Shown here: one piece after another, positions 31,919-56,580 of the stretch
How positions within the stretch are numbered: the stretch's first letter is position 1
How the letters are laid out: the number at the start of each line of letters is the position of its first letter
NCBI RefSeq assembly: GCF_030028105.1
Contig: NC_092397.1
Location: 12,539,271-12,603,270, forward strand
DNA: 64,000 bases
Source: Mobula birostris
Lineage: Eukaryota
Reading direction: 5' to 3'
Made by a program: the position numbers and the translations under genes
Notes under the pieces: model-generated
Databases searched by the model: none
What the model saw: the letters and a program-made list of their open reading frames with translations, nothing else
Told to the model about the DNA's origin: nothing

Positions 31919-31929
31919 TATTACAGCAA

Positions 31930-32614: not shown

Positions 32615-32993
32615 TTACAGCAAATAAAGTTGATCCTTGCTACTGTCTTTCAAACACATTAACTAACCAATATGAAAGGTGATTTTACTATTAATAATTT
32701 ATGAGCACTTTTAATATCTCATAGATAGTAGTAGTAGAATTAGGCCATTCAGCCCATCGAGTCTGCTCCGCCATTCCATCAGGGCTGATTTATTAACCCT
32801 CTCAACCCCATTCTCCTGACTGTCTTCTCAGCACTGGAGAAGGGTCTCCGCCCGAAACGCCGCCTGTTTATTCGTTTTCATGGATGTTGAGTTTCTCCAG
32901 GGTTTTGGGTATGTTGCGTTGCTTTGGATTTCCTGCGTATGCAACATTTCCCATATTTGCGCTGATGGGAATATAGGAAGACGGGCGATGTTT

Positions 32994-33088
32994 CGCCCCA
33001 CAGAAAGATGGTGGGCCCAGTGCGGGGCGGAAGTGACGAAGGCGGGGCGAATGACGTCGCCGTCTGGAATTTTTTACTGCGTGTGAAG
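32994..33088 (+). promoter_or_regulatory. Cystatin unit A promoter (YY1-like, GC box, ETS module)
   Basis: cccacagaaagatgg..cagtgcggggcggaagtgacga is conserved at 61311 and 63877. Confidence 0.65.
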
Positions 33089-33355
33089 ATGGCCGCGTTC
33101 GGGCTGCGCTTCGCAATGGGCCCGGCTCTGCTGCTGGTGGGGTTGGTGTTTGGGGCGGCGGCGGCGGCGGACATGAAGGTGCAGGACGCGCTGGAGGCGG
33201 CGGCAACGCCCCCCTTGCTGGGCAGCCTGTACGACGTACGCGTCGATTCCCCCAAGGTGGTGAAAGCGACCAGGGTGGCCGTGAAGGCCTTCAACCGCAG
33301 CTCCAAAGACGTGCATCGCAGCGCGGTGTCGAATGTGATATCGGCCCAAGCACAG
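33089..33355 (+). CDS. Type-2 cystatin exon 1, unit A (89 aa)
   Basis: Signal peptide MAAFGLRFAMGPALLLVGLVFGAAAA, conserved Gly (LLG), helix ATRVAVKAFN, ends SAQAQ with donor CAG|gtggga in phase 0 inside QxVxG. Confidence 0.9.
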
Positions 33356-34070
33356 GTGGGGAGGTGTGGGGTGTGGTTGGGAGGGGGTGGTAGGTGGGGT
33401 GCGAGAGAGGGTGTTCGGAGTGGGGGAGGGATGAGGAGGGGACGGAGGGCGGGGAGAGAGGAAGGGGATGCACGAGAAGGGGTAGAGGGTGGGGGGTAGA
33501 GGAGAGGGACGGGAGGGGGTAGAGGGTGGGGAAAGGAGGTGGGGGAGGGATGGGGGGGTAGAGGGTGGGGACAGGAGGTGGGGGAGGGAGGTAGGGAGAG
33601 GGGAAGGGTGGGTGGGTGTAGAGGGTGGGGAAGGGAGGTGGGGAGGGGAGGGAGGGCGGGGAGAGAGGAAGGGGATGCACGAGAGGGGGTAGAGGGTGGG
33701 GAAGGGAGGTAGAGAGTGGGGTGGGGAGGGGTGGGCCAGAAGGGAGAGACAGGAGCGGGTAGATGGTGCGGAAAGGAGGTAGGGAGAGGGGAGGGAGTAG
33801 AGGGTGGGGAAAGGAGGTTGGGGAGGGAGGTAGGGAGAGGGGAAGGATGGGAGGGGGTAGAGGGTGTGGAAAGGAGGTAGAGGGGAGGGAGTAGAGGGTG
33901 GGGAGGGAGGTAGGGACGAGAGGTGGGAGGCAGAGATTATGGAGGATGGGGCTGGTGAGGGGAGAGAGGAGAGAAGGGTTGAAGGGGATGAGAAGAAAGG
34001 GTGAGTTCTCTGGAGAGGAGGGGTCAAGTAGAAGGGAAGTAGGACAGAGGAGTGAGTAGAGACAGAGTGG
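33356..34070 (+). repeat. G-rich polypurine low-complexity tract (intron 1 start)
   Basis: Runs such as gggtagagggtgggg and ggagagggga; almost no C. Confidence 0.9.
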
Positions 34071-34134
34071 ATCCCTAGGCAATGCTCTAGGGGCAGGGTG
34101 GGGTAGAATTTTGGAACACAAGGGCGAAGGCCGT

Positions 34135-34823
34135 GGAGGTGGCCCCTTCATTAGGTACATCTCCAATATCTAACCAGCCAATCATCGAGCAAGAAGCACA
34201 CCGACGTGGTCAAGAGGTTCAGTTGTTCAGACTGGGGGAGAAATGTGATCTGAGTCACATTGACCATGGAACGATTGCTGGTGCCAGACGGGCTGGTTTG
34301 AGTTATCTCGGAAACTGCTGACCTGCTGGGATTTTGGCACACAGCAGTCTTCACAGATTGCAGAGAATAGTGCAGAAAAAGAAAAAAACATCCAGTGAGC
34401 GGCGATTTTATTCAGAAATACGGCTTTCCAGCCCAGCAGCCTATTTAAACAGAGTGCGATTTACAGTAACCACTTAACCCACTGACCGGTACGTCTCGGG
34501 GAAACTGGAGCGCCTGGAGCAAACGCACTCACAGGGAGGACGCAGGTGGGAGACGCAACTGAACTCCGAGTTCTGATACCCCCGGAGCTGTAAATTGCAT
34601 CGCGCTGACCCCTATCTCACAGTAGAGATCGGTGGCGAAAACCCCTTATTGCTGAGGGAGGTCGGAGGAGAATTGCTGGACAAGGTCAAATAACCACGCA
34701 TTACAGCAGTGGTGTGAACGAGAGCATCTCGGAATGGGCCACGGCGGCAGACGACCACGAACGTACACTCACTGGCCACTTTAATTAGACGCAGGAGCCA
34801 TCTCAGAAAGTGGCCACTGAGAG
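34135..34823 (+). mobile_element. Tc1-like non-autonomous element, paralogous to 31399-31918
   Basis: DHGTIAGARRAGLS..SETADLLGF remnant; terminal agtggccactgag. Confidence 0.7.
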
Positions 34824-35869
34824 TAAAGTTGATACTTGACGCTGGCTTTCAAACACATTAACCGCCCAGTGCGAAAGGGGTTGCCACTATTAATAATAAT
34901 ATCTTATTTACAGGGCCCTTTTCACAGGTGAAACCATGAAACAATTAGGCCATTCAGCCCATCATTTGCGCCACCATGGCTGATTTGTTGACCCTCTCAA
35001 CTCCTGCCTCCTCACCGCAACCTTTTGACACCCTGATTAATCAAACCCCTATCATCCTGCGCCTTAAATGCACCGAGTGACTTTGCCGCCTGTGGTCAAG
35101 AATTCCAGAGGTTCACCACCCTCTGGCTAAAGACAGTGTTCCTCACCTCTGTTCCGAATGGATGTCCCGCTATATTGAGGCTCTGCCCTCTGGTCCTAGA
35201 CTCTTGTACCCCCTCTATCGGAAACGTCCACTCTATCCAGGACTTTCAATATTTGGTAGATTTAAATAAGGTCGCCGCCTCATTCTTCTAAATTCCATGA
35301 GTACGGACGGAAAGCCTTAAAATGCTGGGATCCTGGGATCGTTCTCGTGAATCTCCTGTGGACCCTCCCCAATGCCAGCATGTCCTTCCTTTGAAAAGGG
35401 GTCCAAAACTGCTCACATTTCCTTTAAGGGGCTCACAGCACTCCCAACTGCAGTGTAGTTACAGACAATATAGTTCAAAGTAGTTTACAATGTGAAAAAG
35501 TGCAAAGTATAAAAATAAGGCAAAATAACGTTAGTTAAAAGCAAAGTTCGATAGATTTTGATCGGGCATTTAGAAATGTCAGTTGAATCTGCTTCTCGTA
35601 TAGTTTTAAGCATCAAGTTCCACAGGTTAGGAGCCTAGTTCATAAAAACAGCTGACCTGCCAGTTCTCTTCTGAGGGAGATTACTTAAATTTAAGGCACA
35701 GGCGATAAAGTGGAGAGGATGTTTCCCATGATGGGAAAGTCTACATCCAGAAGGCGCAGCCTGAGAATAGTGAGATGAAATGGTGAGCAGACTCAATGGG
35801 CCAAATGGTTTAGTTCTGCTCTGATGCCTTATGGTCTTAAGAAGACCTAAGAGCCCAAGCAGATTTATA

Positions 35870-36280
35870 AAATGAATGAGGAAATCTACAGATGCTGGAA
35901 ATCCAAAACAACACACACAAAATGCTGGAGGAACTCAGCAGGCCAGGCAGTGTCTATGGAGAAGAGTAAATGGTCAACATTTCAGTCCAGGACCCTTCGT
36001 CAGGTCTGGAATGGGAGGGGGAAGAAGCCAGACTAGTGGGGGGCGGGGGAGTGAAATTGGAGAGCTGGGAAGTGATTGGTGAAAGAGACAAAGGGCTGGA
36101 GATTGGGAAATCTGATAGGAGAGGGTAGAAGGACATGGAAGAAGAGAGCACTGGGGGAGCTGATGGGCAGCGATGGAAAGAGAGGGAAATGGTGAGGTGG
36201 GGGGCATTACCTGAAATTCAAGAAATTGCTGTTCATACCATCAGGATGGAGGCTACCCAGACGGAATATAAGGCGGTGTT
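35870..36280 (-). mobile_element. Penelope-like element 3' fragment
   Basis: Reverse complement of the GIY-YIG C-terminus (FRLGSLHPDGMN), pyrimidine tract and degenerate hammerhead. Confidence 0.75.
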
Positions 36281-36625
36281 ATAAAAAGGAAAGCGATTCA
36301 GTAATATATTCTGGTCTCAGACCATTGAGCGCTTTGGCAGCAAGTAAGAGGACTTTAAAATTAATTCTGAAAGATGCAGAGTAGGTGGGGTTGGCAGTGG
36401 TGTACTCCCTCGTCCTGGTTAACAGCCATGAGAGCGAAACAGGAGTCCTCACGCTGTTAAAAGCTGCAAAATTGAACTAAGCAGCAGATGAAATCCTGCT
36501 GCAAGGCCACAACCCAAAGCATTGACCAGCACTTGACCACAGAATTCTATCAATTCTACACTCTAAATTCCAGCCTCCATTAAACTTCTGGTAACTATTT
36601 TGGGAAATGTTAAGACATTGACGCA

Positions 36626-39600
36626 GCAGTTGGGCACCACACGAATCAAATACCACCACGGACTGGGATACGGGGCATTTGGGCTCCACGGGGAATCAAA
36701 TATCATCCTGGACTGGAATAAGGGGCAGTTGGGCACCACTGGGTATAAAATATCTGGACTGAGATATGGGGCAGTTGGGCACCACAGGGAATCAAATATC
36801 ATCCTGGACTGGGATATGGGGCAGTTGGGCTCCAATAGGTATAAAACTCATCCTGGAGTGACATACGAGCAAGTTGAGCACCACTGGGTATAAAACAGAT
36901 CCTGGACTGGGATACAGGGCAGTTGGGCACCACTGGGTATAAAACATATCCTGGACTGAGATACGGGGCAGTTGGGCACCACTGGGTATAAAACACATCC
37001 TGGACTGGGATACGGAGCATTTGGGCTCCACTGGGTATAAAACACATCCTGGACTGGGATACAGGGCAGTTGGGCACCACTGGGTATAAAACATTATGGG
37101 CTGGGATACGGGTAGTTGAGTACCACTGGGTAGAAAACATCCTGGACTGAGATACGGGCAGTTAGGCACCACTGCGTATAAAACACGTACTGGACTGGGA
37201 TACGGGGCACTTGGGCAGCACGGGGAATCAAATAGCATCCTGGACTGGGATACGGGGCAGTTGGGTACCACTGAGTATAAAACACATCTTGGACTGGAAT
37301 AGGGCAGTTGGGCACCACTGGGTATAAAACATCCTGGACTGAGATAATTGGCAGTTGGGCACCACTGGGTATAAAACACATCCTGGACTGGGATATGGGG
37401 CAGTTGGGCTCCAATAGGTATAAAACTCATCCTGGACTGAGATACGAGCAAGTTGGGCTCCAATAGGTATAAAACTCATCCTGGACTGAGATACGAGCAA
37501 GTTGGGCTCCAGTAGGTATAAAACAGATCCTGGACTGGGATACAGGGCAGTTGGGCACCACTGGGTATAAAACAGATCCTGGACTGGGGTACGGGGCGGT
37601 TGGGCTCCACCGGGTATAGAACATCCTGGACTGGGATACGGGATATTTGGGCACCACTGGGTATAAAACACATCCTGGAATGGGATATGGGGCATTTGGG
37701 CACCACTGGGTATAAAACATTATGGGCTGGGATACGGGTAGTTGAGTACCACTGGGTAGAAAACATCCTGGACTGAGATACGGGCAGTTGGGCACCACTG
37801 CGTATAAAACACGTACTGGACTGGGATACGGGGCACTTGGGCAGCACGGGGAATCAAATAGCATCCTGGACTGGGATACGGGGCAGTTGGGTACCACTGA
37901 GTATAAAACACATCTTGGACTGGAATAGGGCAGTTGGGCACCACTGGGTATAAAACATCCTGGACTGGGAGATGGGACATCTCGGCTCCACAGGGAATCA
38001 AATATCATCCAGGACTGGAATACGGGGCAATAGGGCACCACTGGGTATGAAACATCCTGGACTGGGATACGGGATATTTGGGCACCGCTGGGTATAAAAC
38101 ACATCCTGCAATGGGATATGGGGCATTTGGGCAGCACGGGGAATCAAATATCATCCCGGACTGGGATATGGGGCAGTTGGGCTCCAATAGGTATAAAACT
38201 CATCCTGGACTGAGATAAGAGCAAGTTGGGTTCCAATAGGTATAAAACAGATCCTGGACTGGGATACAGGGCAGTTGGGCACCACTGAGTATAAAACACA
38301 TCTTGGACTGGAATAGGGCAGTTCGGCACCACTGGGTAGAAAACATCCTGGACTGAGATAATTGGCAGTTGGGCACCACTGGGTATAAAACACATCCTGG
38401 CCTGGGATATGGGGCAGTTGGGCTCCAATAGGTATAAAACTCATCCTGGACTGAGATACGAGCAAGTTGGGTTCCAATAGGTATAAAACAGATCCTGGAC
38501 TGAGATGCAGGGTAGTTGGGCACCACTGGGTATAAAACAGATCCTGGACTGGGGTACGGGGCGGTTGGGCACCACTGGGTATGAAACATCCTGGACTGGG
38601 ATACGGGGCATTTGGGCACTGCTGGCTATAAAACACATCTTGGAATGGGATATGGGGCATTTGGGCAGCACAGGGAATCAAATATCATCCTGGACTGGGA
38701 TACGGGGTAGTTGGGCTCCAATAGATATAAAACCCATCCTGGACTGGAATAAGGGGCAGTTGGGCAGCACTGGGTATAAAACATTCTGGACTGAGATACG
38801 GGGCAGTTGGGCACCACAGGGAATCAAATATCATCCTGGACTGGAATAAGGGGCAGTTGGGCACCACTGGGTATAAAACATCCTGGACTGGGATATGGGG
38901 CAGTTGGGCACCACTGGGTAGAAAATATCCTGGACTGGGATATGGGGCAGTTGGGCACCACTGGGTAGAAAATATCCTGGACTGAGATAATTGGCAGTTG
39001 GGCACCACTGGGTATAAAACATATTCTGGACTGGGATATGGGGCAGTTGGGCTCCAATAGGTATAAAACTCATCCTGGACTGAGATACGAGCAAGTTGGG
39101 CTCCAATAGGTATAAAACAGATCCTGGACTGGGATACAGGGCAGTTGGGCACCACTGGGTATAAAACACATCCTGGACTGGGATACGGGGCGGTTGGGCT
39201 CCACTGGGTATAGAACATTTCCAGGACTGGAATACGGGGCAGTTGGGCACCACTGGGTATGGAACATCCTGGACTGGGATACGAGGCATTTGGGCACCGC
39301 TGGGTATAAAACACATCCTGGACTGAGATACGGGGCAGTTGGGCTCCAATGGGTATAAAACCCATCCTGGACTGGGATACGGGACATTTGGGCTCCATGG
39401 GGAATCAAATATCATCCTGGACTGGAATAAGGGGCAGTTGGGCACCACTGGGTATAAAACATCCTGGACTGGGATACGGGGTAGTTGGGCATCACTGGGT
39501 AGAAAACATCCTGGACTGAGATAATTGGCAGTTGGGCACCACTGGGTATAAAACACATCCTGGACTGGGATACGGGGCGGTTGAGCTCCACTGGGTATAG

Positions 39601-42600
39601 AACATTTCCAGGACTGGAATACGGGACAGTTGGGCACCACTGGGCATGAAACATCCTAGACTGGGATACGGGGCATTTGTGCACCACTGGCTATAAAACA
39701 CATCCTGGAATGCGATATGGGGCATTTGGGCAGCACAGGGAATCAAATATCATCCTGGACTGGGATACGGGACATTTGGGCTCCACGGGGAATCAAATAT
39801 CATCCTGGACTGGAATAAGGGGTAGTTGGGCACCACTGGGTATAAAACATCCTGGACTGGGATACGGGGTAGTTGGGCACCACTGGGTAGAAAACATCCT
39901 GGACTGGGATAATTGGCAGTTGGGCACCACTGGGTATAAAACACATCCTGGACTGGGATATGGGGCAGTTGGGCTCCAATAGGTATAAAACTCATCCTGG
40001 ACTGAAATACGAGCAAGTTGGGCTCCAATATGTATAAAACAGATCCTGGACTGGGATACGGGGTAGTTGGGCACCACTGGGTAGAAAACATTCTGGGCTG
40101 AGATAATTGGCAGTTGGGCACCACTGGATATAAAACACATCCTGGACTGGGATATGGGGCAGTTGGGCTCCAATAGGTATAAAACTCATCCTGGACTGAA
40201 ATACGAGCAAGTTGGGCTCCAATATGTATAAAACAGATCCTGGACTGGGATACAGGGCAGTTGGGCACCACTGGGTATAAAACAGATCCTAGACTGGGGT
40301 ACGGGGCGGTTGGGCACCACTGGGTATGAAACATCCTAGACTGGGATACGGGGCATTTGGGCACCACTGGGTATAAAACACATCCTGAAATGGGATATGG
40401 GGCATTTGGGCAGCACAGGGAATCAAATATCATCCTGGACTGGGATACGGGGCAGTTGGGCTCCAATGGGTATAAACCCCATCCTGGGCTGGGATACGGG
40501 ACAGTTGGATACCACTGAGTATAAAACATCCTGGACTGAGATAATTGGCAGTTGGGCACCACTAGGTATAAAACACATCCTGGACTGGGATATGGGGCAG
40601 TTGGGCTCCAATAGGTATAAAACTCATCCTGGACTGAGATACGAGCAAGTTGGGCTCCAATAGGTATAAAACAGATCCTGGACTGGGATACAGGGCAGTT
40701 GGGCACCACTGGGTATAAAACAGATCCTGGACTGGGGTATGGGGCGGTTGGGCTCCACTGGGTATAGAACATCCTGGACTGGGATACGGGATATTTGGGC
40801 ACCACTGGGTATAAAACACATCCTGGAATGGGATATGGGGCATTTGGGCAGCACAGTGAATCAAATATCATCCTGGACTGGGATACGGGGCGGTTGGGCT
40901 CCAATAGGTATAAAACTCATCCTGGACTGGGATACGGGGCAGTTGGGCTCCACTGGGTATAGAACATTTCCTGGACTGGAATACGGGGCAGTTGGGCACC
41001 ACTGAGTATAAAACATCCTGGACTGGGATACGGGGCATTTGGGCTCCACGGGGAATCAAATATCATCCTGGACTGGAATAAGGGGCAGTTGGGCACCACT
41101 GGGTATAAAACATCCTGGACTGGGATATGGGGTAGTTGGGCACCACTGGGTAGAAAACATCCTGGACTGAGATAATTGGCAGTTGGGCACCACTGGGTAT
41201 GAAACACATCCTGGACTGGGATACGGGGCGGTTGGGCACCACTGGGTATAAAACACATCCTGGACTGGGATACGGGGCGGTTGGGCACCACTGGGTATAA
41301 AACACATCCTGGACTGGGATACGGGGCGGTTGGGCTCCACTGGGTATAGAACATTTCCTGGACTGAGATACGGCGCAGTTGGGCACCACAGGGAATCAAA
41401 TATCATCCTGGACTGGGATACAGGGCAGTTGGGCTCCAATAAGTTTAAAACCCATCCTGGACTGGGATACAGGGCAGCTTCCAGCACGGGGTATAAAAAT
41501 ATCATACTCATCAGGATATGGGGCAGTTAGGCGTCACAGGGAACCAAATATTATCTGGGCTAGGATACGGGGTAGTTCAGCACCTCGGGGTATAAAATAC
41601 AATCCTGGTTTTGGGTAAGCGCAGTTGGGCACCTTAGGGAATTGGGGATTCCCGTACCATCAAGGATGGGGATACGGGATAGCTCGGCACGACGGGGTAT
41701 CAAATACAATCCTGCGCTGGAATGATGGGCACCATCGGGTATCAATTACCATCCTGCGCTGGGCTATGGGGTAGTTGGGCACTGTGAGATATCAATGTCC
41801 AGGACTGGGAAGATGGGCACCTCGGGGTATCAAATATCAACCAAGCTGGGATGTGGCCCTTGGGCACCATTGGGAATACCATCTTGGCTTGCACGTGGCA
41901 GCTGGGCACCACAGGGAATCAAATACGATCCAGGACAGGTATAAGGAGCAGGTGGGCACCCACAGGGAATCAGATACCATCAAGAACTGGGTTAGGGGGC
42001 AAATAGGCAGTACAGGGAATTCAATACCACCCTGCTCTGGGATACGGGGTAAGTGGGCACCACAGGAATCAAATACCACCCTGGACAGGGATACGGGGCA
42101 GCTGGGCACCACGGGGAATGAAATACCCTGCTCGGGAGTGATATGGGATTGTTGAGAACCAGACGGAATGGAAACTATCCTGGACAGGAATGAGGGGCAG
42201 ATGGGATATCAGATAACATCTTGGCTGGGATGTGGCAGCTGAGCACTATTGGAAATCAAATACCACCCTGGACTGGGATAAGAGGTAGATGGGCACCACA
42301 GGAAACCAAATACCGTCTTGCCTTCAGATACTATGCAGTTGGGCACCGCAGGGAATGGAATACCATCAAGGACGGGGAAATGGGGTGTCTGGGCACCATG
42401 AGGTATCAATTACAATCCTGCACTGGGATACGGGGTAGCGGGGGCCGCTGGGTATCAAATACAATCCTGGACTGGGATGAGGGGCAAATGGGCCCTAAAG
42501 AAAATCAAGTACCATCCTGGGGTTGGATACCGTGCAGTTAGGGTCCTCGGGGAATCCCATACCATCAACGACGGGGATACGGGATAACTGGGCACCATGG

Positions 42601-45600
42601 GGTATTAGTTACAATTGCACTGGGAAGGAGGGCAGTTGCGCACCAGGGGGGAATGAAATACCATCTCGGCTGGGGGATGTGGTAGCTGAGCACTATCAAA
42701 TGCTATCAAGGACTGGAATGAGCGGCAAATGGGCCCGACAGGAAACCAAATAACCATCCTGGTTTCAGATACTATGCGGTTGGGCACCTCAGGGAATCAA
42801 ATACCATCCTGGGCAGGGATGTGGGGCAAATGGGCCGTACAGGAAATCAAGTACCATACTGGTTTCGGACATGTGCAGTTGGGCACCACAGAGAATAAAA
42901 TATCATTGTGGACAGGGTTAGGGGGTAAATGGGCACCATGGGGTATCAATTATCATCCTGCAGTGGTATAAGGAGGTTGGTTGGGCACCACAGAGTATCT
43001 GGTAAAATCCTGGATTGGGATACGGGGCAGCTGGGCACCTCAGGGGATCAAATACCATCGAGGACTGGGATATGGGGTAGTTGGACACCATGGGGTATCA
43101 AATACCCAGCTTGACTGGGCTACAGGGTAGTTGAGAACCAGACAGAATTAAAACCAAACTGGACTGCGATACAGGGTAGTTGGGCACCGCAGTGAATCAA
43201 GTACCACCCTGCACTGGAATACTGGATAGTTGGGCACCACGGGGATATATTACCACACTGAACTGGCATATAGGGCAGCTGGCAACCACGGAGACTCAAA
43301 TATTACCCTGGCTGGTATGTGTCAGCTGGGAACCACAAGGAATCAAAAAGCATCCTGGACAGGGATACTGGGCAGTTAGAAACCTCAGGGTATCAAATAC
43401 AATCCTGGACTGGGATATGGGGCAAATGGGCCGTACAGGAACCTGGGTTCTGATACTGTGCAATTGGGCACCGCAGGGAATCAGATACCATCAAAGACAT
43501 GGATACGGGGTAGCTGGGCACCATGGGGTATCAAATGGATCCAGGACAGGGATAAAGGGGAAGGTGGGCCCACAGGGAATCAGATTCCCTGATCGACTAG
43601 AATACAGGGTTGTTGAGCACCACGGGGCATCAAAAAAATCCTGGATTGAGATACGTGGCAGTTGGGCATCACGGGGAATCAAATACCATCAAGGACAGAT
43701 TTAGGGGGCAAATGGGCACTACTGGGAATTCAATACCACCCTGCACTGGGATACGGGGTAGTTGGGCACCACAGGAATCAAATAACCATCCTGGACTGTG
43801 TTACGGGGCACCTGGGCACCACGGGGAATGAAATATCCTGCTCGATAGGGATATGGATTGTTGAGAACCAGAGGGAATCAAAGCCATCCTGATCTGGGAT
43901 ACGGAGCAGTTGGGACGTCAAATAACATCTTGGCTGGGTTGTGGCAGCTGAGCACTATGCGAACTCAAATACCACTCTGGTTTCAGATACTGTACAGTTG
44001 GGCACCTCAGGGAATCAAATACCATCAAGGACGGGGTAGCTGGGCACTGTGGGGTATCAACTGCCATCCTCGACTGGGATAAGGGCTGCTGGTCACTGCA
44101 GGATATCAATACCATCGGGGACTTAAATACGGGGAAGATGGGCACCATTAGGAATCAAATAGCCTCGTGGACTGGAATAGGGGGCAGTTAAGCACCATGG
44201 GGTATCAAAAAGTGTCCTAGACTGGGATACGGGGTAGTTGGGCACCGCGAGGTATCAAATATCAACCAAGCTGGGATGTGGCCCTTGGGCACCATTGGGA
44301 ATCAAATGCCATCTTGGCTGGCATGTGGCAGCTGAGCACCACAGGGACCCCACCTAATCGACTAGGATACAGGGTTGTTGGGCACTACGGGGTATCAAAA
44401 AATCCTGGATTGGGAGACGTGGCAGTTGAACATAGAATAGTACAGCACATTACAGGCCCTTCGGCCCACAATGTTGTGCCGACCCTCAAACCCTGCCTCC
44501 CATATCACCCCCCACCTTAAATTTCTCCATATACCTGTCTAGTAGTCTCTTAAACTTCACGATTGTATTTGCCTCCACCACTGACTCAGGCAGTGCATCC
44601 ACGCACCAACCACTCTCTGAGTAAAAAGCCTTCCTCTAATATCCCCCTTGAACTTCCCACCACTTACCTCAAAGCCATATCCCCTTGTATTGAGCAGTGG
44701 TGCCCTGGGGAAGAGGTGCTGGCTATCGACTCTCTATCTGTTTTTCTTAATATCTTGTACACCTCTATCATGTGTCCTCTCATCCTCCTTCTCTCCAAAA
44801 AATAACACCCTAGCTCGCTTAATCTCTGATCATAATACATACTCTCTAAACCAGGCAGCATCTTGGTAAATCTCCTCTGTACCCTTTCCAATGCTTCCAC
44901 ATCCTTCTTATAGTGAGGTGACCAGAACTGGACACAGTACTCCAAGTGTGGCCTAACCAGAGTTTTATAGAGCTGCATCATTACATCGCGACTCTTAAAC
45001 TCTATCCCTCGACTTATGAAAGCTAACACCCCATAAGCTTTCTTAACTAACCTATCTACCTGTGAGGCAACTTTCAGGGATCTGCGGACATGTACCCTCA
45101 GATCCCTCTGCTCCTCCACACTACCAAGTATCCTGCCATTTACTTTGTACTCTGCCTTGGAGTTTGTCCTTCCAAAGTGTACCACCTCACACTTCTCCGG
45201 GTTGAACTCCATCTGCCACTTCTCAGCCCACTTCTGCATCCTATCAATGTATCTGCAATCTTTGACAATCCTCTACACTATCCACAACACCACCAACCTT
45301 TGTGTCGTCTGCAAACTTGCCAACCCACCATTCTACCCCCACATCCAGGTCGTTAATAAAAATCACGAAAAGTAGAGGTCCCAGAACAGATCCTTGTGGG
45401 ACACCACTAGTCGTAATCCTCCAATCTGAATGTACTCCCTCCACCACGACCCTCTTGCCTTCTGCAGGCAAGCCAATTCTGAACCCACCTGGCGAAACTT
45501 CCCCGGATCCCATGCCTTCTGACTCTCTGAATAAGCTTACTGTGTGGAACCTTGTCAAATGCCTTACTAAAATCCATATAGATCACATCCACTGCACTAC

Positions 45601-48320
45601 TGTCATCTACATGCCTGGTCACCTCCTCAAAGAACTCTATCAGGTTTGTTAGACACGATCTGCCCTTAACAAAGCCATGCTGACTGTCCCTTATCAGACC
45701 ATGATTCTCTAAATGCCCAGAGATCCTATCTCTAAGAATATTTTCCAACAGCTTTCCCACCACAGACGTAAGGCTCACTGGTCTATAATTACCCGAACTA
45801 TCCCTACTACCTTTTTTGAACAAGGGGACAACATTCGCCTCCCTTCAATCCTCTGGCACCATTCCCGTGGACAACGAGGACATAAAAATCCTAGCCAGAG
45901 GCTTAGCAATCTCTTCCCTCGCCTCATGGAGCAGCCTGGGGAATATTCCGTCAGGCCCCGGGGACTTATCTGTCCTAATGTATTTTAACAACTCCAACAC
46001 CTCCTCTCCCTTAATATCAACATGCTCCAGAACATCAACCTCACTCATATTGACCTCACCATCATCAAGTTCCCTCTCATTGGTGAATACCGAATAGAAG
46101 TATTCATTGAGGACCTCGCTCACTTCCACAGCCTCCAGGCACATCCTCCCACCTTTATCACTAATCGGTCCTACCTTCAATCCTGTCATCCTTTTGTTCT
46201 TCACATAATTGAAGAATGCCTTGGGGTTTTCCTTCACCCTACTCACCAAGGCCTTCTCATGCCCCCTTCTTGCTCTTCTCAGCCCCTTCTTAAGCTCCTT
46301 TCTTGCTTCCCTATATTCCTCAATAGACCCATCTGATCCTTGCTTCCAAAACTTCATGTATGCTGCCTTCTTCCACCTGACTAGATTTTCCATCTCACAC
46401 GTCACTCATGGTTCCTCCAGCCTACCATTCTTTATCTTGGACACCACGGGGAATCAAATACCATCAAGGACTGGAATAGAGGGCTGGGATACGGGGTAGC
46501 TGGGCACCAGGGGGTTTCAATTATAATCCTGTACTGGGATACGGGGTAGCTGGGCACCATGGGGCATCAATCACATTTGCACTGGGAAGAAGGGCAGTTG
46601 CACGCCAGGGGGAATGAAGTGCCACCTTGGCTGGAGCATGTGGCGGCTGAGCACTGTGGGGAATCACATACGGTCCTGGACTGGGATACGGGCCAGCTGG
46701 GCACCTCAGGGTATCAAATACCATCGACTGGGATGCGGGGCAGTTGGGCACCATGGGGGACCAAATACCCTGCTGGACAGGGCTACAGGGTAGTTGAGAA
46801 CCAGACAGAATTAAAACCAAACTGGACTGCGATACCGGGCAGTTGGGCACTGCAGAGAATCAGGTACCATCCTGCACTGGAATACGGGGTAGCTGGGCAC
46901 CCACATAAATCTATTACCGCACTGGACTGGCATATAGGGCAGCTGGGCACCACGGAGAATCAAATATTACCCTGGCTGGTATGGTGTCAGCTGGGCACCA
47001 CGGGGAATCAAAAAACATCCTGGACGGGGATACAGGGTGGTTGGTGACCACAGGAATTAAGTTCTATCATGGACTGGGATAATGGGCATTTAGGCTCCAC
47101 GGGGAATGAAATACCCGCTCAACCTGGATACGAGGCAGTTGGGCAGTTCAAGGAATCAAATACCACCCTGGACTGAGATATAGGACAGCTAGGTACCTCA
47201 GGGTATCAAATATCATCTGGGCTGGGTTAAGGGGCAAATGGGCCCTACAGGAAATCAAATACAATCCTGGGTTTGGCACTGCGCAGTTGTGCACCTCAGG
47301 GAATCAAGTACCATCCTGGACTGGGGTGCGGATCAGTTGGGCAACAGGGGGAATGAAATGCTCGGCTCGACAGGGATACAAGGTAGTTGAGAACCAGAGG
47401 GAATCAAAACCATCTTGGACTGCCATATGGGGTAGTTGGGCACTGCGGGATATCAAATAATGTCCAGGACAGGGATACAGGGCAGTTGGTCACAAGAAGG
47501 AATTGCATACTATCCTGGACAGGGATACAGTGTAGTTGGGCACCACGGGAATCAAATTCCATCCTGGGATACAGGTCAGCCTGGCAACACGAGGTATCAA
47601 ATATCGAACTGAAACAGGATACGGGGCAATTCGGTACCACGGGGTATCAAATACGATCTGGGCTGCGATACGGGGCAGTTGGGCACCTCAGGGAATAAAA
47701 TACTGTTGGGGTCTGGGATGCGGGACAAATGGGCCCTACATGAAATCAAATACCATCCTGGGTTGGGATACTGTGCAGCTGGGCACCGCAGGGGATCCCA
47801 TACCATCCTGCACTGGGATACGGGGATGATGGGAACCTCGGAGTATCAAATACCAACCGAGCTGGGATGTGGCCCTTGGGCACCATTGGGAATCAAATAC
47901 TATCTTGGCTGGCATGTGGCAGCTGGGCACCACAGAGAATCAGATACCCTGTTCGACTAGGATACAGGGTTGTTGGGCACCACGGGGTATCAAAAAAATC
48001 CTGGATTGGGATACACGGCAGTTTGGCACCACAGGGAATCAAATACCATCAAGAACTGGGATGGGGGCAAATGGGCACTACTGCGAATTCAATAGCATCC
48101 TGCACTGGGATACAGGGTTACTGGGCACCACAGGAATCAAATACCATCCTGGTCTGGGATACGGGGTAGCTGGGAATGAAATACCCTGCTCGACAGCGAT
48201 ACGGGCTAGCTGAGAACGAGAGAGAATCAAGACCATCTTGGACAGGAAAGCGGGGTAGTTGGAATATCAAATAACATCTTGGGCACTATGGACAGGGATA
48301 CGGGGCAAATGGGCACTGCA
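36626..48320. repeat. 49-bp satellite array, about 200 monomers, interrupted by a CR1
   Basis: Monomer CATCCTGGACTGGGATACGGGGCAGTTGGGCACCACTGGGTATAAAACA (period 49 at 41221/41270); homogeneous to ~41470, divergent afterwards. Confidence 0.97.
44429..46436 (-). mobile_element. CR1 LINE (5'-truncated ORF2) inserted in the satellite
   Basis: RT ORFs at 44664-46405(-); splits monomer gcagttg|gacaccac; 3-bp TSD TTG. Confidence 0.95.
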
Positions 48321-48324
48321 GGAC

Positions 48325-48830
48325 CCATTCAGGGCCCCAAACAGACCTTCCGAGTGAGGCAACATTTCACCTGCACATCTGATGGGGTGAGGGGGTGTCA
48401 TCTATTGTGTCCGGTGCTCCCGATGCAGCCCCCTCTATGGCGGTGAGACCTGCGGCAAAGTGGGGCACCACTTCGTCAAACACCTCCGCTCCAACAGAAC
48501 TTCCCAATGGCCAAACGTTTTAATTCCCATTCCTGTTCCAACATGTCGGTTCATGGCCTCCTCTTGCAGCTACAATGGGGCCATCCTCAGTGGAGGAGCA
48601 ACACCTTATATTCCTTCTGGGTAACCTTGCATAGTTATTGATTTCTCCTTCCTGTTAATAAAAGGAATTCCCTCCCTTTCCCTGTTTTTCTATTTCCCGT
48701 TCTGGGCTCTTACCCCTTCTCACCTTCCTATCACACTGTGCCCTTCCTCCTTCCCTTTCTCCTTTCGTCCTCTCCCCTCTCCTGTCAGATTCCTTCCTCA
48801 CCAGCTCTTTTCGATCCTCATCCACAAAAG
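48325..48830 (+). mobile_element. Penelope-like GIY-YIG remnant
   Basis: QGPKQTFRVRQHFTC..IYCVRCSRC..LYGGET, homologous to 18950-19300. Confidence 0.75.
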
Positions 48831-48864
48831 CTGCTGCTTTTGTGATAATGGCGACTCGTAGATA

Positions 48865-51385
48865 TCATAAGACCATAAGATATAGGAGCAGAAGTAGGCC
48901 ATTCAGCCTATCGAGTCTGCTCCGCCATTCAATCACGGGCTGATCCAATTCTTCCAGTCATCCCCACTTTCCTGCCTTCACCCCATACCTTTTGATGCCC
49001 TGGCTAATCAAGAACCTGTCTATCTCTGTCTTAAATGCACCCAATGACTTGGCCTCCACAGCCGCACATGGCAACAAATTCCACAGATTTACCACCCTCT
49101 GACTAAACTAATTTTTTCGTATCTCTGTTCTAAATAGATGTCCTTCAATCCTGAAGTCTTGCCCTCTTGTCCTAGAGTCCTCTACCATGGGAAATAACTT
49201 TGCCATATCCAATCTGTTCAGGCCTCTTAATGTTTCTATGAGATCCGCCCCCCCCCCGCCATTCCCCTGAACTCCAAGGAATACAGCCCAAGCGCTGCCA
49301 TACGTTCTTCATACAGTAACCCTTTCATTCCTGGAATCATTTTCGTGAATCTTCTCTGAACCCTCTCCAATGTCAGTATATTCTTTCTAAAATAAGGAGC
49401 CAAAAACTGCACACAATACTCCAAGTGTGGTCTTAAGAATGCCTCAAGGAGCCTCAACATCACATCCCTGCTGTTGTATTCTATACCTCTAGAAATGAAT
49501 GCCAACATTGCATTCAATTTCTTCACCAACGACTCAACCTGCAGGTTAATCTTTAGGGTATCCTACACAAGGATCCCCAACTCCCTTCGCATCTCTGCAG
49601 TTTGAATTCTCTCCCCATCTAAATAATAGTCTGCCTATTTATTTCTTCCACCAAAGTGCATGATCATACACTTTCCAACATTGTGTTTCATTTGCCACTT
49701 CTTTGCCCATTCTCCTAAACTATCTAAGTCTCTCTGCAGGCTCTCTGTTTCCTCAACACTACCTGCTCCTTTACCTATCTTTGTATCATCGGCAACTTTA
49801 GCCACAAATCCATTAATACCGTAGTCCAAATCATTGACATACATCGTAAAAAGCAGCGGTCCCAACAACGACCCCTGTGGAACTCCATTGGTAACTGGCA
49901 GCCAGCCAGAATAGGATCCCTTTATTCCCACTCTCTGTTTTCTGCCAATCAGCCAATGCTCCACCCATGCTAGTAACTCCCCTGTAATTCCATGGGCTCT
50001 TACCTTGCTAAGCAGCCTCATGTGCAGCACCTTTTAAAGGCCTTCTGAAAATCCAAGAACAGCACATTTACTGCATCTCCTTTAACTACCCTGCTTATAA
50101 TTTCTTCAAAAAATTGCACTAGGTTTATCAGGCAGAATTTTCCTTTCAGGAAACCATGCTAGCTTTGACCTATCTTGTCATGTGCCTCCAGGTATTCCGT
50201 AATCTCATCCCCAATAATGGATTCCAACAATTTCCCAACCACTGATGTCAGGCTAACAGGTCTATAGTTTCCTTTCTGCTGCCTCCCACCCTTCTTAAAT
50301 AGCGAAGTAACATTTGCAATTTTCCAGTCATTTGGTACAATGCCAGAATCTAATGATCCTTAAAAGATCATTATTAATGCCCCCGCAATCTCTCCAGATA
50401 CTTCCTTCAGAACCCAAGGGTGCATTCCATCTGGTCCAGGAGATTTATCCACCCTCAGACCATTAAGCTTCCTGAGCACCTTCTCAGTCATAATTTTCAC
50501 TGCACAAATTTCACTTCCCTGATACTCTTGAATATCAGGTATACTGCAGATGTCTTCCACTGTGAAGACTGATGCAAAATACACATTCAGTTCCTCTGCC
50601 ATCTCTCTGTCTCTCGTTACAATATCTCCAGTGTCATTTTCTGTTGGTCCTATATCTATTCTCAACTTTCTTTTACCCTTTATATACTTAAAAAAGCTTT
50701 TAGTGTTTTCCTTGATATTAGTCGCCAGCTTCCCTTCGTAATTCATCTTTTCCTTCCTACTGACCTTCTTAGTTTCCTTCAGCAATTTTTTAAAAGCTTC
50801 CCAATCCTCTATCTTCCCACTAGCTCTGCCCTCTCTTTTGCTTTTACTTTGGCTCTGACTTCACTTGTCAGCCACAGTACTGTACTTCTTCCATTCAAAA
50901 AAAAATTATTTGGAATATATCTGTCTTGCACTTCCCTCATTTTTCACAGAAACTCCAGGCCACAGCTGCTCTGCAGTCCTTCCTGCTAGTGTCCCTTTCC
51001 AGTCAACTTTCGCCAATTTCCCTGTCATGCCATTGTAGCTTCATTTATTCCACTGAAATACCGACAGATTGGATTTTAGTTTCTCCTTTTGAAGTTTCAA
51101 AGCGAACTCGATCATATTGTGATCACTGTTCCCTAAGGGTTCCCTAACCTTAAGCACCTCCGGATCATCACACAACACCCATTTCAGCACAGCCGATCCC
51201 CTAGTCGGCTCAACAACAAGCTGCTCTGAAAAGCCATCCCTTAGACATTCTACAGATTCTCTCTCTTGAGGTCGTGGTTTTTCCAATCCGCTCTCATGCT
51301 AAAATTCCCAACGATTATCATGACATTGCTCTTCTATCTCCTGCTGTGATTTGTAATCCACATCCCGGCTGCTGTTTGGAGTCAT
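48865..51385 (-). mobile_element. CR1 LINE ORF2 (partial EN plus RT), degenerate
   Basis: [47 protein letters not shown]; tail cataagaccataaga on +. Confidence 0.92.
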
Positions 51386-51849
51386 TACTGGAGTGTGAAG
51401 GAGGATCAGATCCTGTCTCCCATTCCTGTTTTAATTAAGAAGTTCCCCACATCCCTACCCCGGCTGCCAAGACTATCCTGCCCAGATCTATGCTCATGTG
51501 TTAACCCTTCCATTCCCAGAAGGACCTTTTCTGGAAGCACATTCTTTCTTAAATAAAGTAGACCAGAACTGCTCCAAAATGAGGTCTCACAGGTGTCTTG
51601 TAACGCCTCAGCATTACACACTTCCTTTTATATTGTAGTCCTCTCAAAATAACTGCTAGCATTGCATTTGCCTTCCTCACCACCGGCTCTGCCTACAAGT
51701 TAGATTTTGGGGAATCCTGCAGGAGGTCTCCCAAGTCCCTTTGCACCTCTGATTCCTGAATTTGCTCCCTGAAACTCCCCATCAGTGTGTCCATAAGGAC
51801 AGTCATATTAACCTCTGCCCCAGAGATACTGAAGGCAACGGAGGCTGCG

Positions 51850-52160
51850 CCACCCTGAACAGACGCTCACCAGCCATAACGGCGACCCGCACCTATCAGG
51901 CAGGGGCGTTACCGCCACCTACTGGAAATGGAGTGCTCCTACCTCCCAAACCTGTTTTGATTAAAAAGGCTCACCCAGGGTCCCCTAACTGTCCCTGGCT
52001 CGGTTGCTAAAGTATCTTGCAACCTAGGCAGCCCGGACCTACCCTTAAATTGCCTAAACAGCTTCCTGCATTCCAACAGGTATCTGCGGCAGACCGCGAT
52101 CACATGTTCCGCCGGTCACTGGCACCGTACAAAAATCACACCACCCGTCCCCATGATTAC
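51850..52160 (-). mobile_element. Nimb/I-group LINE 3' end (CCHC knuckle); a smaller piece lies at ~51385-51500
   Basis: Minus strand GNHGDGWCDFCTVP/EHVIAVCRRY...LIKTGLG and 3' motif cactccatttccagtaggcggtaacgc; second piece NFLIKTGMGDRI*. Confidence 0.55.
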
Positions 52161-52558
52161 CAACAAGCACCTCTACCACCATACCAGGCAGTGCATTCCG
52201 GGCATGTACTTAGGGTGAAAAACTTACCCCTCAGTTCCCCCTCTCACCTTCAATGCATGCCCTCCAGTATTAGACATTTCTACCCTGGGAAACAGACACT
52301 CCCTTGTCTACTCTATCTATGACTCTCATAACCTTATAAACCTCGATCAGCCTCGGACGCTCCCAGAAAACAACCCAAGGTAATCCAGCCTGTCATGACA
52401 GCCCACGCCCTCCTGGTGAACCTCTTCTGCACCCTCTCCAAATCTCAATATCCTTCCTATGGGGGTAGGGGGCCGACCGGAACTATACGCAATACTCCAG
52501 GTGTGAGTTCTACCAAATCAGTCAATCTAACCGGGAGAATATTTTTGTCACAGTTAGA

Positions 52559-53037
52559 AACAGAGAAAACCTATAGCACAATACAGGCCCTTCGGCCCAC
52601 AATACTGTGCCGAACATGTCCTTACCTTAGAAATTACCTAGGGTTACCCATAGCCCTCTATTTTTCTAAGCTCCACATACCTATCCAGGAGCCTCTTAAA
52701 AGACCTTATCATATCTGGCTCCGCCGCTGTCGCCGGCAGCCCATTCCACGCACTCACCACTCTCTGCGTAAAAAAAACATCTCCTCTGTACCTTTTTCCA
52801 AACATCTTAAAACTGTGGCCTCTCGTTCTAGCCATTTCAGCCCTGGGAAAAAACCGCTGACTATCCACACGATCGATGCCTCTCATCATCTTATACACCT
52901 CTATCAGGTCACCTCTCATCCTCCATCGCTCCAAGGAAAAAAGGTCGAGTTCACTCAACCTATTCTCAAAGGCACGCTCCCCAATCCAGGCAACATCCTT
53001 GTAAATCTCCTCTGCACCCTTTCTAGGGTTTCCACAT
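52559..53037 (-). mobile_element. Short CR1 insertion with 8-bp TSD
   Basis: TSD CAGTTAGA at 52551-52558 and 53038-53045; empty sites in paralogous spacers at ~57211 and ~63325. Confidence 0.9.
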
Positions 53038-53580
53038 CAGTTAGACATGAAAGTGCTCATTACCTTAACGTCGACAATATCTTCAACCCCGGTCCTAATG
53101 CCCTTCACCTCCTCATCCCAAACCGTTACCCACGACTCAGTTCTTGCCAAAATCCATTTCATCCTGTCACTGAGCTTCCCGATCTGAACTTACCATCGGC
53201 TGCACTCAGTCACAAACCACCGGCCCCCGTCAGGCTCGTCAGCGGCTACAATATCCAGACCACACTGCGGTTTCATCCCCGAAGGGAAAAGACGCATTCT
53301 TTCCTCTGTCCCCGGCCCACCTGGCTTCACCCGTCGTCTTTGACCTTAACCTCATTCCCACGTCATGATTTTATATTCTGGCCTCTTCCCCTTCCTCTCC
53401 AGCCCTGATGAAGTGTCTCGGCCCGAAACGACGGCTGGTTATTCTTTTCCATAGATGCTGTCTGACCTGCTCAGTTCCTCCGGAATTTTGTATTTCCGTA
53501 GATCATGTCCGACCTGCTCAGTTCCTCTGGCGATTTGCGTGTCTGTGTTGCCTAGTATTTCCACCATTTCTCATGTTTGC

Positions 53581-54400
53581 GGAGGGGAGTAGTTGAGGAG
53601 GGGGAGGGGGAGTGGGAGTGGGTGAGGACGGCGAGAGGGAGGGAGGAGGGGATGTGGGAGAGAGGGAAGGGGAGGTGTGTGGGGGCGAGAAGGAGGAGGG
53701 GAGGGAGGGAAGTGAGGTGGGGTTGGGAGGAGGGTGGTAGGAAGAAGGAGGAGGGGATGTTGGAGAGGGTGAGGGAGAGGTGTGTGGGGGAGAGGAGGGA
53801 GGGAAGTGAGGTGCGGTGGGAGGGAAGTGAGGTCGGGGTGGGATGAGTGTGGTGGGAAAAGGGAGGAGGGGAAGAGCGAGGACGGGGGAGGGAGGAGGGG
53901 AGGAGTTTTGGGGTGGTGGATGAAGGGAGATGGGAGGAAGGTGAGAGGGAGATGGGGAAGGAGGTGGGGTTGGGCTGGCGGAGAGAGGTGAGCAGTGGGG
54001 AGGCCGTGGGTGGCGGAGTTGGGGGAGGGAGGTGTAGGGGTGGGGAGAGAGTTGGTAGGAGTGGTGGGGTGGTGGAATGAATTTGGGGAAGTGGGGTGTG
54101 GTGAGGGAATGGGGGAGAGAGATCGGGGTAGGAGAGGGCAGAGGGGTGGGATGGAAGTAGAGTTTGTAGAGGTGAGGAGTGGGGGCGGATTGGGTTGTGG
54201 TTGAGGTGTAGAGATTGTGGAGACGGGTGGAGAAGTAGGGGTGTATGGGGGGCAGGTGAGGATTAGTGAGGGGGTGGGTTTGGGTGTATGGAAGAGGGGA
54301 AGGGGGGTTTGGGGAGGAAAGGGCAGAAAGATGGGAAGGAAGGTTGGGTGCTGTGGGGAGGAGTGAGAGAGGAGGAGCTAGGGAGTAGGAAAATTGTTGG
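53581..54400 (+). repeat. G-rich polypurine tract (intron 1 of unit B, exon 1 absent)
   Basis: Same composition as the tracts following exon 1 in units A and C. Confidence 0.85.
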
Positions 54401-54439
54401 AGTGGGTGAAGACATTGACGGATGTGGATCAACGCTATA

Positions 54440-55715
54440 AGAGATATAACGAGCGCAGTGGATAGAGGGGAACAGATGGACGTTATCTACTTGGATTTCT
54501 AGAAGACGTTCGATAAAATGCCGCATAAACGACTTAGCCATAGATAAAGATGCATAGAGTTGGGGTGATGTATTAGCATGGATAAACGATTGGTTAACCA
54601 ATGGAAAGCAGAGAGTTGGCATACATGGGCGTTTCTCTGGTTGGCAATCAGTGGTGAGCGGTGACACACATTAACAATCTGGAAGAGGGGACCAAGTGTA
54701 GTGTATCTAATTTTGTTGATTAGTACTAAATTGAGTGCAGAATATACGGAGGGTCTGCAGAGAGATATAGGTAGGTTAGGTGAGTGGGCAAGTGTCTCTC
54801 AGATGGAGTACAATGTTGGTAAATGCGAGGTCATTCTCTTTAGAAGGAAAATAGAACAGCAGATTATTATTTAAATGGTAAAAGATTGCAGCATGCTGAT
54901 GTGACTGGGGACTCGGGAGTGCTTGTGCATGAATCACAGAAGGTTGGTTTGCAGGTACAGCAGGCTATCAAGAAGGCAAATGGGACAAAACATAGAACAT
55001 AGAATAGTACAGCACAGTACAGGCCCTTCGGCCCACAATGTTGTGCCAACCCTCAAACCCTGCCTCCTATATAAGCCCCCACCTCTGCTCCATTCCTCCA
55101 CTGCTAGAAGGATTGAATTTAAGAGCAGGGAGGTTATGCTGCAACTGTACAGGGTACTGGTGAGGCTGCACCTGGAGTACTGCGTGCAGTTCTGGTCTGC
55201 TTGCTTGAGGAAGGATCTATTGGCTTTGGAGACGGTGCAGAGGAGGTTCACCAGGTTGATTCCAGAGATGAGGGGGTTAGACTATGAGGAGAGATTGAAT
55301 CGCCTGGGACTGTACTCGCTGGAATTCAGAAAAATGAGAGGAAATCTTATAGAAACATAAAATTATGGAAGAGATAGAGGCAGGAAAGTTCTTTCCACTG
55401 CTAGGTGAGACTAGAATTAGGGGACATAGCCTCAAGATTTAGGACAGTAGATTTGGGACTGAGATGAGGAGGAATTGTTTTGCCCAGAGGATGGTGAATC
55501 TGTGGAATTCTCTGCCCAATGAAGCAGTGGAGGCTACGTCAGTAAATATATTTAAGACAAGGTTGGATAGATTTTCGCACAGTAGGGGAATTAAGGGTTA
55601 TGGGGAAAAGGCAGGTGGGTGGAGATGAGTCCATGGCCAGATCAGTCATGATCTTATTGAATGGCGGAGCAGGCTCGACGGGCCGGATGGCCGACTCCTG
55701 CTCCTGTTTCTTATA
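54440..55715 (+). mobile_element. CR1 RT/3' fragment with a nested ~95-bp CR1 tail (54989-55083, -)
   Basis: [18 protein letters not shown]; the nested piece matches the tail at 44429. Confidence 0.85.
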
Positions 55716-55831
55716 ACCAGCAGAGTGTAGGTGGTGGGTGTGTGCAGATGAGTGACCACGCCTGGCTCGATACATACAGACACCCTGTAGAGATGTTTTG
55801 AGGCCTTTCTGACTGTAGGGTGCTCTTGCAG

Positions 55832-55942
55832 GTGGTGTCGGGGCTCATGTACCATCTCACCCTGGAGCTGAGAACCACCGTCTGCAGGAAGAGTTCTGTT
55901 TCCCGCAACTGTCCCTTCCACAAGAATCCTCGGTATGCCAAG
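55832..55942 (+). CDS. Type-2 cystatin exon 2, unit B (VVSGLMYHLTLELRTTVCRKSSVSRNCPFHKNPRYAK)
   Basis: Acceptor ttgcag; completes QVVSG; first Cys pair; donor AAG|gtgagc. Confidence 0.93.
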
Positions 55943-56086
55943 GTGAGCAATCAGTGCACTGGTGGTCTCGGAAGAGAGGGGCGGGGGTCCTGTCCCCAGG
56001 GACACTGGAACCTGGTGGGGGTTCATGAATCTGCCGGGGTACCGGCGGGAAACTCTTTTAATACTGGCTTCTGCTTTTCCCCGCAG

Positions 56087-56176
56087 ACAATGACCTGTAG
56101 ATTTAAAGTCTGGGATCGCCCGTGGGTCGGACCAATGCAGATGTTCGAACAGCGTTGCTCCAGGACGGCAAAGTGA
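56087..56176 (+). CDS. Type-2 cystatin exon 3, unit B (TMTCRFKVWDRPWVGPMQMFEQRCSRTAK*)
   Basis: Acceptor ccgcag; PW motif; second Cys pair; TGA stop. Confidence 0.93.
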   Translation, partial: TMTCRFKVWDRPWVGPMQMFEQRCSRTAK

Positions 56177-56574
56177 CCGGTCTGTCGGACCCCGGCGGCA
56201 CACAACGTGGCGCGCACCGCTCAGCTAAAGCAATACTTCTGATGACCAGGTCAAATGGATACGAATACAGCACTTTACCACGGCCCGGGGCGCCTCGTAA
56301 TGCAATCTCTGCAACGCATACAGACAAACGAGCGTGTGTATACACTCGCTCACTAATATACATTCCCCAGGCTACTATCTCTCTCTCTCTTTTACACGCC
56401 ATCTTTGAGTTGGAACTCGTCATAGACATCGAGGGGCCAAATAACCCGCTCCTGTGCCAGACCGCTGTACGTTCTGTGCTCAATAGTATTTGGGTTCCAA
56501 CTCGCGGGCTGACCAGTTATTACCATAATTGTATACTGTAATTAATCTGCTAATGTATATTTTTATTCTTGCGC

Positions 56575-56580
56575 AATAAA
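56575..56580 (+). terminator. Cystatin polyadenylation signal
   Basis: AATAAA ~400 nt after the stop, followed by GT-rich sequence. Confidence 0.7.

Follow-up and report, generated by a model that had tools for sequence, protein, structure and literature searches.

Hybrid genes that arise by unequal crossover, such as those of the opsins, the glycophorins, and CYP11B1/B2, join the 5' part of one paralog to the 3' part of its neighbor. The same composition is likely in the cystatin gene analyzed here, which lies in a stretch of 64,000 nt from Mobula birostris (assembly GCF_030028105.1, contig NC_092397.1, positions 12,539,271 to 12,603,270 of the forward strand). This whole stretch is called the window hereafter, and its positions are counted from its first letter. 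The gene has its promoter and first exon in one unit of a cystatin cluster, designated A, and its second and third exons in another, B, with two more units, C and D, lying downstream. Tandem duplication followed by deletion within the duplicate is a process already described as a source of chimeric genes, according to the accessible part of Rogers et al. (2014, PMC4069613). Among rays, two cystatins account for 19% of the venom protein of Neotrygon kuhlii, as stated in the accessible part of PMC11053709. We found nothing on this cystatin locus in the literature covered by our search, which most subscription journals and supplements lay outside. On balance, we consider that A and B probably constitute one working type-2 cystatin gene, in which the promoter and exon 1 of A became joined to exons 2 and 3 of the next copy before manta and devil rays diverged.

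Structure of the Gene and Its Public Model

The coding sequence of A exon 1 measures 267 nt and ends at a GT in phase 0; exon 2 (111 nt) and exon 3 (90 nt including the stop codon) of B, both in phase 0, continue it into an open frame of 155 amino acids across a first intron of 22,476 nt (table 1). The three translations, taken in order, are identical to the protein model P0001 of our set, namely RefSeq XP_072101576.1, a cystatin-2-like protein of M. birostris, which was the one protein returned, out of four candidates, by a search with A exon 1 alone. The A-to-B join already exists, in this form, as a public gene model, and it matches the 155-residue cystatin with Gly, QVVSG, PW, and four Cys that the first-pass annotation of the window had assembled from the letters alone. 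That annotation had also depicted A as a unit with promoter and exon 1 and no exons 2-3 nearby, a description borne out by searches with tblastn, blastn, and nhmmer --max, in which no remnants of exon 2, exon 3, or the 3' untranslated region (UTR) emerged from positions 34074-53580. Across the promoter and exon 1 of A, the observed/expected ratio of CpG is 1.10. On the side of B, exons 2 and 3 are intact, as claimed, and a polyadenylation signal, AATAAA, follows them at 56575-56580. The upstream region of B matches that of D until 53580 and then passes directly into a G tract, again as reported, whereas A, C, and D enter promoter and exon 1 at this point. The same three programs recovered no promoter or exon-1 remnants in 33400-55831, and no second candidate first exon was found inside the 22.5-kb intron by tblastn or nhmmer --max.

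Contigs from 4 of the 24 listed sequencing runs were aligned to positions 55700-56700, and the results given here concern the contigs listed. Runs X4-X7, all of one study, are presumed to be RNA, a status that is guessed and on record for none of them; 43-61% of the words sampled from 55780-56620 occur in these four runs. One mismatch-free contig in each of X4 and X5 omits the 144-nt intron 2 and continues into the UTR, the two contigs beginning within exon 2 (55870 and 55876). If these runs are RNA as presumed, exons 2 and 3 of B are transcribed and spliced although B is without a promoter of its own.

A and B as Probable Remnants of Two Tandem Units

A and B seem to be what remains of two paralogous tandem units, since each has a copy of intron 1, a copy of the spacer of A recurs behind A, repeats and spacers group B with C and D, and exons 2-3 of B differ from exon 1 of A in their distances to the other paralogs. 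The A intron at 33861-34070 aligns to C 62642-62846 with 152/191 identities (score 129; best of 500 shuffles 127) and is colinear with the C intron up to about 60 nt before the acceptor of C exon 2. In turn, B 54205-54430 aligns to A 33863-34073 with 148/204 identities (score 103; best of 500 shuffles 101), and the B copy of intron 1 aligns to that of C with 176/241. Just after the A intron lies U', a 75-80% copy of the spacer upstream of A (327/408 plus 155/207). The repeat of B that resembles a short interspersed element (SINE) is 86-89% identical to those of C and D versus 77% to that of A, the promoter-proximal repeat of which shares 70-77% with the copies in B, C, and D; a 355-nt upstream spacer of B reaches 93.5-94% with C and D. 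As for the coding parts, exons 2-3 of B share 55/66 residues with P0003 and 54/66 with P0004, both of D-type, and 54/66 with the A-type gene of Hypanus, whereas the mature exon 1 of A shares 29/47 residues with P0003 and 27/47 with P0004.

The main alternative, though rather unlikely, is that A exon 1 and B exons 2-3 have always been one gene, into which an unequal crossover or a template switch inserted a C/D-type upstream block with a second copy of intron 1, the redundant parts being subsequently lost; the coding sequence would then be reconstituted and not chimeric. Events are poorly dated by the G tract (B and C share 73% there, where their SINEs share 86%), which leaves room for this account. 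Yet the identity of the B copy of intron 1 to A (73%) does not exceed that between A and C (80%), exons 2-3 of B are equally close to D-type and Hypanus A-type sequences, and more events would be needed, including loss of the block from upstream of C. The simplest form of the same account, suggested by eye, in which a single insertion cut one intron into consecutive halves, failed: alignments of the A tail and of the start of the B tract to adjoining positions in C do not rise above the level of shuffles (424/500 and 252/500), and A and B both contain the same 3' stretch of intron 1.

Age of the Exon Pairing in Rays

The comparisons with M. hypostoma and Hypanus rest on protein models. Homolog searches kept 13 among 105 scored candidates and 20 among 8,000, nearly all of them from Mobula and Hypanus, and protein trees were built from 21 of the models P0001-P0024, excluding the intron-retaining isoforms P0009 and P0016 as well as the frameshifted P0013, with P0022 additionally excluded from the tree of exons 2-3. 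Open forks number 12 of 17 in the exon-1 tree and 10 of 17 in that of exons 2-3. Exon 1 defines an A-type clade formed by P0001, P0002 of M. hypostoma, and P0015/P0017 of Hypanus (support 98/100). Identities between P0001 and P0002 amount to 44/47 in exon 1, 27/29 in exon 3, and 30/37 in exon 2; the two are reciprocally nearest in exons 2-3 (57/66), where the nearest row to P0015 besides its twin is P0001 (54/66). When translated, intron 2 of B is identical at 34/48 positions to the retained intron of a Hypanus A-type isoform, a level similar to that between the upstream region of A and the stretch by which the Hypanus A-type model is extended at its 5' end (21/29 and 24/34). Simulation places the intron-2 match at about 85% nucleotide identity, with 73-75% being unlikely (P 0.006-0.016) and 78% having P 0.08.

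Because of the A-type clade, the reciprocal proximity of exons 2-3, and the identity of intron 2, we infer that the pairing of exon 1 with exon 3, which is present also in M. hypostoma, antedates the two Mobula species, and that the A-B pairing probably predates the split from Hypanus, namely from dasyatid stingrays. A new pairing should be absent from relatives; P0002 has it, and P0015/P0017 probably do. Among 150 further proteins, none has an A-type exon 1 (best match 46%), so these supplied no outgroup for the pairing. In X13, a run from a related organism, an ortholog of exon 3 and the UTR is present with 11 differences and 2 indels over 371 nt, and its exon 3, read by hand, carries a Met-to-Val change that is found also in P0002. 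The first-pass annotation had held that congruent trees of exon 1 and exons 2-3 would indicate a single original gene. The exon pairing shared with P0002 of M. hypostoma, and probably with Hypanus, goes part of the way in that direction. The account of one gene with a later insertion gains from these results, for the pairing is alike in three species, intron 2 of B shows ortholog-level identity to the Hypanus A-type gene, and an A-type clade in exons 2-3 is not rejected.

Proposed History of the A-B Gene

In terms of mechanism, this situation raises a question: How did B lose its promoter and first exon, and A lack the rest, while a presumably working gene persisted? The first-pass annotation had answered with complementary deletions rescued by long-range splicing. 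Part of this answer is supported, namely the apparent origin of A and B from two paralogous units, the loss of promoter and exon 1 from B, the splicing of the B exons, and the public model joining A to B. Taken in its strong form, by which two complete paralogs broke and splicing over about 22 kb recently rescued a new chimera in this lineage, it is highly improbable: It accommodates both missing halves as described, but the pairing is old, being shared with P0002 and probably Hypanus, the ortholog in X13 bears the Met-to-Val change of P0002, and no trace of exons 2-3 belonging to A occurs in 34074-53580. A partial duplication with one deletion fits as well as complementary deletions do and would make a rescue unnecessary. 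Moreover, the splicing may not have been long-range when the join occurred, since the intron, which now contains a 9.7-kb tandem repeat, may have been far shorter.

According to the history that we favor, an early tandem duplication would have produced A and the ancestor of B, C, and D. Either A was copied only up to a point just before exon 2, or its exons 2-3 were lost later, and transcripts from its promoter would have been spliced to the next acceptor, that of B exon 2, with A serving as an alternative first exon. Further duplications of the B-type unit would then have generated C and D, and only after these copies were made would the promoter and exon 1 of B have been deleted. Both would have been redundant because exon 1 of A could splice onward at once; without a dead intermediate, no rescue would be required. 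The 49-bp repeat and long interspersed elements (LINEs) probably lengthened the intron.

Several observations weigh against this reconstruction. The intron-1 alignments exceed their shuffles by 2 points only, and those of the 5' G tracts fail to exceed them (27/200 reach the score). Trees of exons 2-3 reject neither the A-type clade (approximately unbiased test, p-AU 0.5) nor the grouping of B with P0003 and P0004 (0.465). Gene conversion among the copies likely blurs the dating, given that exon 2 of P0002 matches B at only 30/37, and it could mimic part of the age signal. No contig linking an A-type exon 1 to B is among those listed for the four runs in 55700-56700; all 8 listed contigs with a 5' loose end at 55829 (three in X4, two in X5, and three in X13) have a consensus ending in C-type last codons, not in those of A. 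The remaining loose ends, read by hand, match the paralogs P0019 and P0004, and the B-specific contigs start inside exon 2, so that an A-to-B junction is compatible with these contigs but gains no support from them. The same shortage of junction contigs would be expected from an artifact, in which the assembly lost exon 1 of B at the G tract or the annotation fused two half-genes while B uses an unseen first exon. G-rich tracts are difficult to sequence, and two models of the cluster, P0013 and P0014, look mis-joined. Nevertheless, we regard an artifact as very unlikely, for the independent assembly of M. hypostoma has the same pairing, with a B-type exon 3 in only one of its eight models that have a homologous exon 3, and two separate errors would be needed, one for the 3' half of A and another for the 5' half of B.

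Our verdict is that A-B is probably an old composite gene, formed by a known process and encoding what looks like an ordinary cystatin. If the proposed history holds, it would offer a clear vertebrate case in which an upstream duplicate has supplanted a first exon and the breakpoints can still be read, and such a takeover possibly occurred twice in one array. With the protein already in RefSeq and devoid of new domains, the value of the case lies in genome evolution and annotation, not in biochemistry.

Units C and D and a Possible Second Chimera

Intron 1 of C spans 61622-62907, and its 1,286 nt agree with the earlier estimate of about 1.3 kb. C itself is broken, a point that the first-pass annotation had not noted, since its exon 2 ends after 46 nt at 62953; this stub resembles P0021 of M. 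hypostoma (14/15). The model P0004 shares its first exon with C (table 1). Its exons 2-3 are nearest to P0003 (59/66), a grouping with P0021 being rejected (p-AU 4e-5), and exon 1 of D starts differently from that of P0004. Three readings of this model are conceivable, namely a second and younger chimera joined by splicing, an identical copy of exon 1 beyond the window, or an annotation error. If it is a chimera, it would be limited to M. birostris, since P0021 and P0003, its counterparts in M. hypostoma, form two distinct genes.

One may tentatively extend these observations, although the extension is doubtful, to a myliobatiform cystatin array that would repeatedly re-pair exon 1 with exons 2-3 while keeping the spacer, orphan first exons being spliced to the next intact exon 2. 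A-B would be its old and fixed product, and P0004 a young one restricted to M. birostris. If true, new inhibitor variants would arise again and again in an expanded family associated with venom, by splicing that bridges broken copies.

Other models of the cluster resemble half-genes: exons 2-3 occur twice in P0014, a frameshift affects P0013, P0018 is without a leader, and P0022 has a nonhomologous last exon. P0019 is a mosaic, with a leader like that of one paralog group, a mature exon 1 sharing 44/47 residues with C, and exons 2-3 of P0021 type. The spacer of C contains a LINE insertion (57584-61137), which appears to be fairly young since 95% identity persists between its 3' part and a copy at 5500-6291.

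Protein Family and Genomic Neighborhood

P0001 consists of a single cystatin domain (PF00031, residues 45-139, 59.1 bits against a cut-off of 22.2, E 5e-16) following an N-terminal hydrophobic leader visible by eye. Its best PDB matches are cystatin chains, for instance 1yvb_I and 1cew (E 5e-19 to 1e-18), with cystatin C scoring better (2e-18) than cystatin M (6e-15). Gly45, Gln89-Gly93, and Pro138-Trp139 align with chicken cystatin. In the accessible part of PMC2784779, the N-terminal Gly segment, the QxVxG loop, and the PW loop are the inhibitory elements of type-2 cystatins. Cys107, 116, 130, and 150 align with the cysteines of 1yvb_I, predicting two disulfides, and we predict that the protein is secreted and inhibits papain-family proteases. 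Residue 73 (codon 33305-33307) is Lys in P0001 and Asn in chicken cystatin, P0002, and P0015. We take this position to be Asn39 of cystatin C, the site of legumain inhibition; P0001 lacks the Asn that characterizes the legumain-inhibiting cystatins (C, E/M, and F). Because Lys replaces Asn at this presumed site, the A-B protein is predicted to inhibit papain-family proteases without inhibiting legumain.

Upstream of the cluster lies an exon of DRAP1 (NC2 alpha) at 14169-14243, with 24/25 residues identical to a PDB chain; a second DRAP1 exon is probably located at 17900-17980, and the gene provides a synteny anchor. Human CST6 lies near DRAP1 as well; a literature search for this linkage found no papers. 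In its accessible part, PMC2784779 lists cystatin E/M but not C for Chondrichthyes (Table 2). Given the DRAP1 neighbor and the tables of that survey, the ray cluster is a likely candidate for the cystatin E/M lineage, although the PDB scores favor cystatin C over M. This expansion of likely E/M-lineage cystatins in rays deserves to be flagged, since the 2009 survey, in the accessible part of the text, listed no lineage-specific expansion (PMC2784779 Table 3). GC-rich tandem repeats of 39-46 bp occupy 3621-4375, beside a GC-rich region around 4400-5000, and may lie near the DRAP1 promoter.

Contents of the 22.5-kb Intron

Of the 22,476 nt of intron 1, 9,698 belong to a 49-50-bp tandem repeat, 1,568 to the G tract, and 7,024 match repeats or paralogous spacer at other places in the window, with an unassigned remainder of 4,186 nt. 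The tandem array shows higher-order periods of 99, 145, and 194. A LINE inserted in the B spacer at about 52555-53041 is flanked by an 8-nt target-site duplication; three other searches for such duplications yielded matches of 6-7 nt, possibly due to chance. At the time of the join, the intron was probably shorter.

Table 1. Features of the A-B Gene and of Neighboring Units in the Window
Feature	Positions	Strand	Remarks
Upstream spacer U of A (transposon remnant, unique linker, LINE 3' end; types assigned by eye)	31417..32820	+	Aligns to 34151-35015
Promoter-proximal SINE-like repeat of A	32829..32952	+	70-77% to B/C/D; in-frame 21/29 to Hypanus A-type 5' extension
Promoter/5' UTR of A, CpG-rich	32995..33088	+	81-83% to C and D promoters
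Exon 1 coding sequence of A	33089..33355	+	Hydrophobic leader, Gly45, Gln89 of QxVxG
A copy of intron 1, G-rich	33356..34073	+	152/191 to C
U', old paralogous copy of A spacer; putative start of the 5' flank of the next unit	34151..35015	+	
49-50-bp tandem repeat array, part 1	36626..44428		
LINE fragment splitting the array	44428..46436	-	Matches 25603-27468 and 65-964; reverse transcriptase-like frames
49-50-bp tandem repeat array, part 2	46436..48330		
B upstream spacer, C/D-homologous	52431..53580	+	Promoter and exon 1 lacking at its 3' end
B copy of intron 1, G-rich	53581..54430	+	148/204 to A
LINE fragment in B intron 1 (left edge approximate)	54431..55709	+	
Exon 2 of B	55832..55942	+	VVSG, Cys107, Cys116
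Intron 2 of B	55943..56086	+	144 nt, GT-AG; absent from one contig each in X4 and X5
Exon 3 coding sequence of B	56087..56176	+	Cys130, PW 138-139, Cys150, stop
3' UTR of B	56177..56580	+	AATAAA; contigs reach ~56534-56549, short of the signal
Exon 1 of C	61415..61621	+	Identical to residues 1-69 of RefSeq model P0004 (69/69)
Exon-2 stub of C	62908..62953	+	Joined to spacer through 3-nt microhomology
Exon 1 start of D	63978..64000	+	Cut by window end

Comparison with Known Systems

With type-2 cystatins such as chicken cystatin, cystatin C, and cystatin E/M, A-B shares the Gly, the QxVxG and PW motifs, the four Cys, and the organization in three exons. It differs from them in the length of its intron 1, 22.5 kb compared with the 1.3 kb of unit C, in the approximately 15 extra residues that Mobula A-type proteins carry after the leader, and in having Lys73 instead of the Asn of chicken cystatin. 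Crossover hybrids delete the spacer between the copies, whereas A-B retains 19 kb of it inside its intron. With cystatin-1 and cystatin-2 of stingray venom, as presented in the accessible part of PMC11053709, A-B has in common the cystatin family and the order of rays. Like the chimeras considered in the accessible part of PMC4069613, A-B is probably composed of parts of two copies. Unlike them, its parts are paralogs of one family that leave the domain unchanged, and they would be joined by splicing over leftover spacer in a gene that appears to be old and fixed, not polymorphic.

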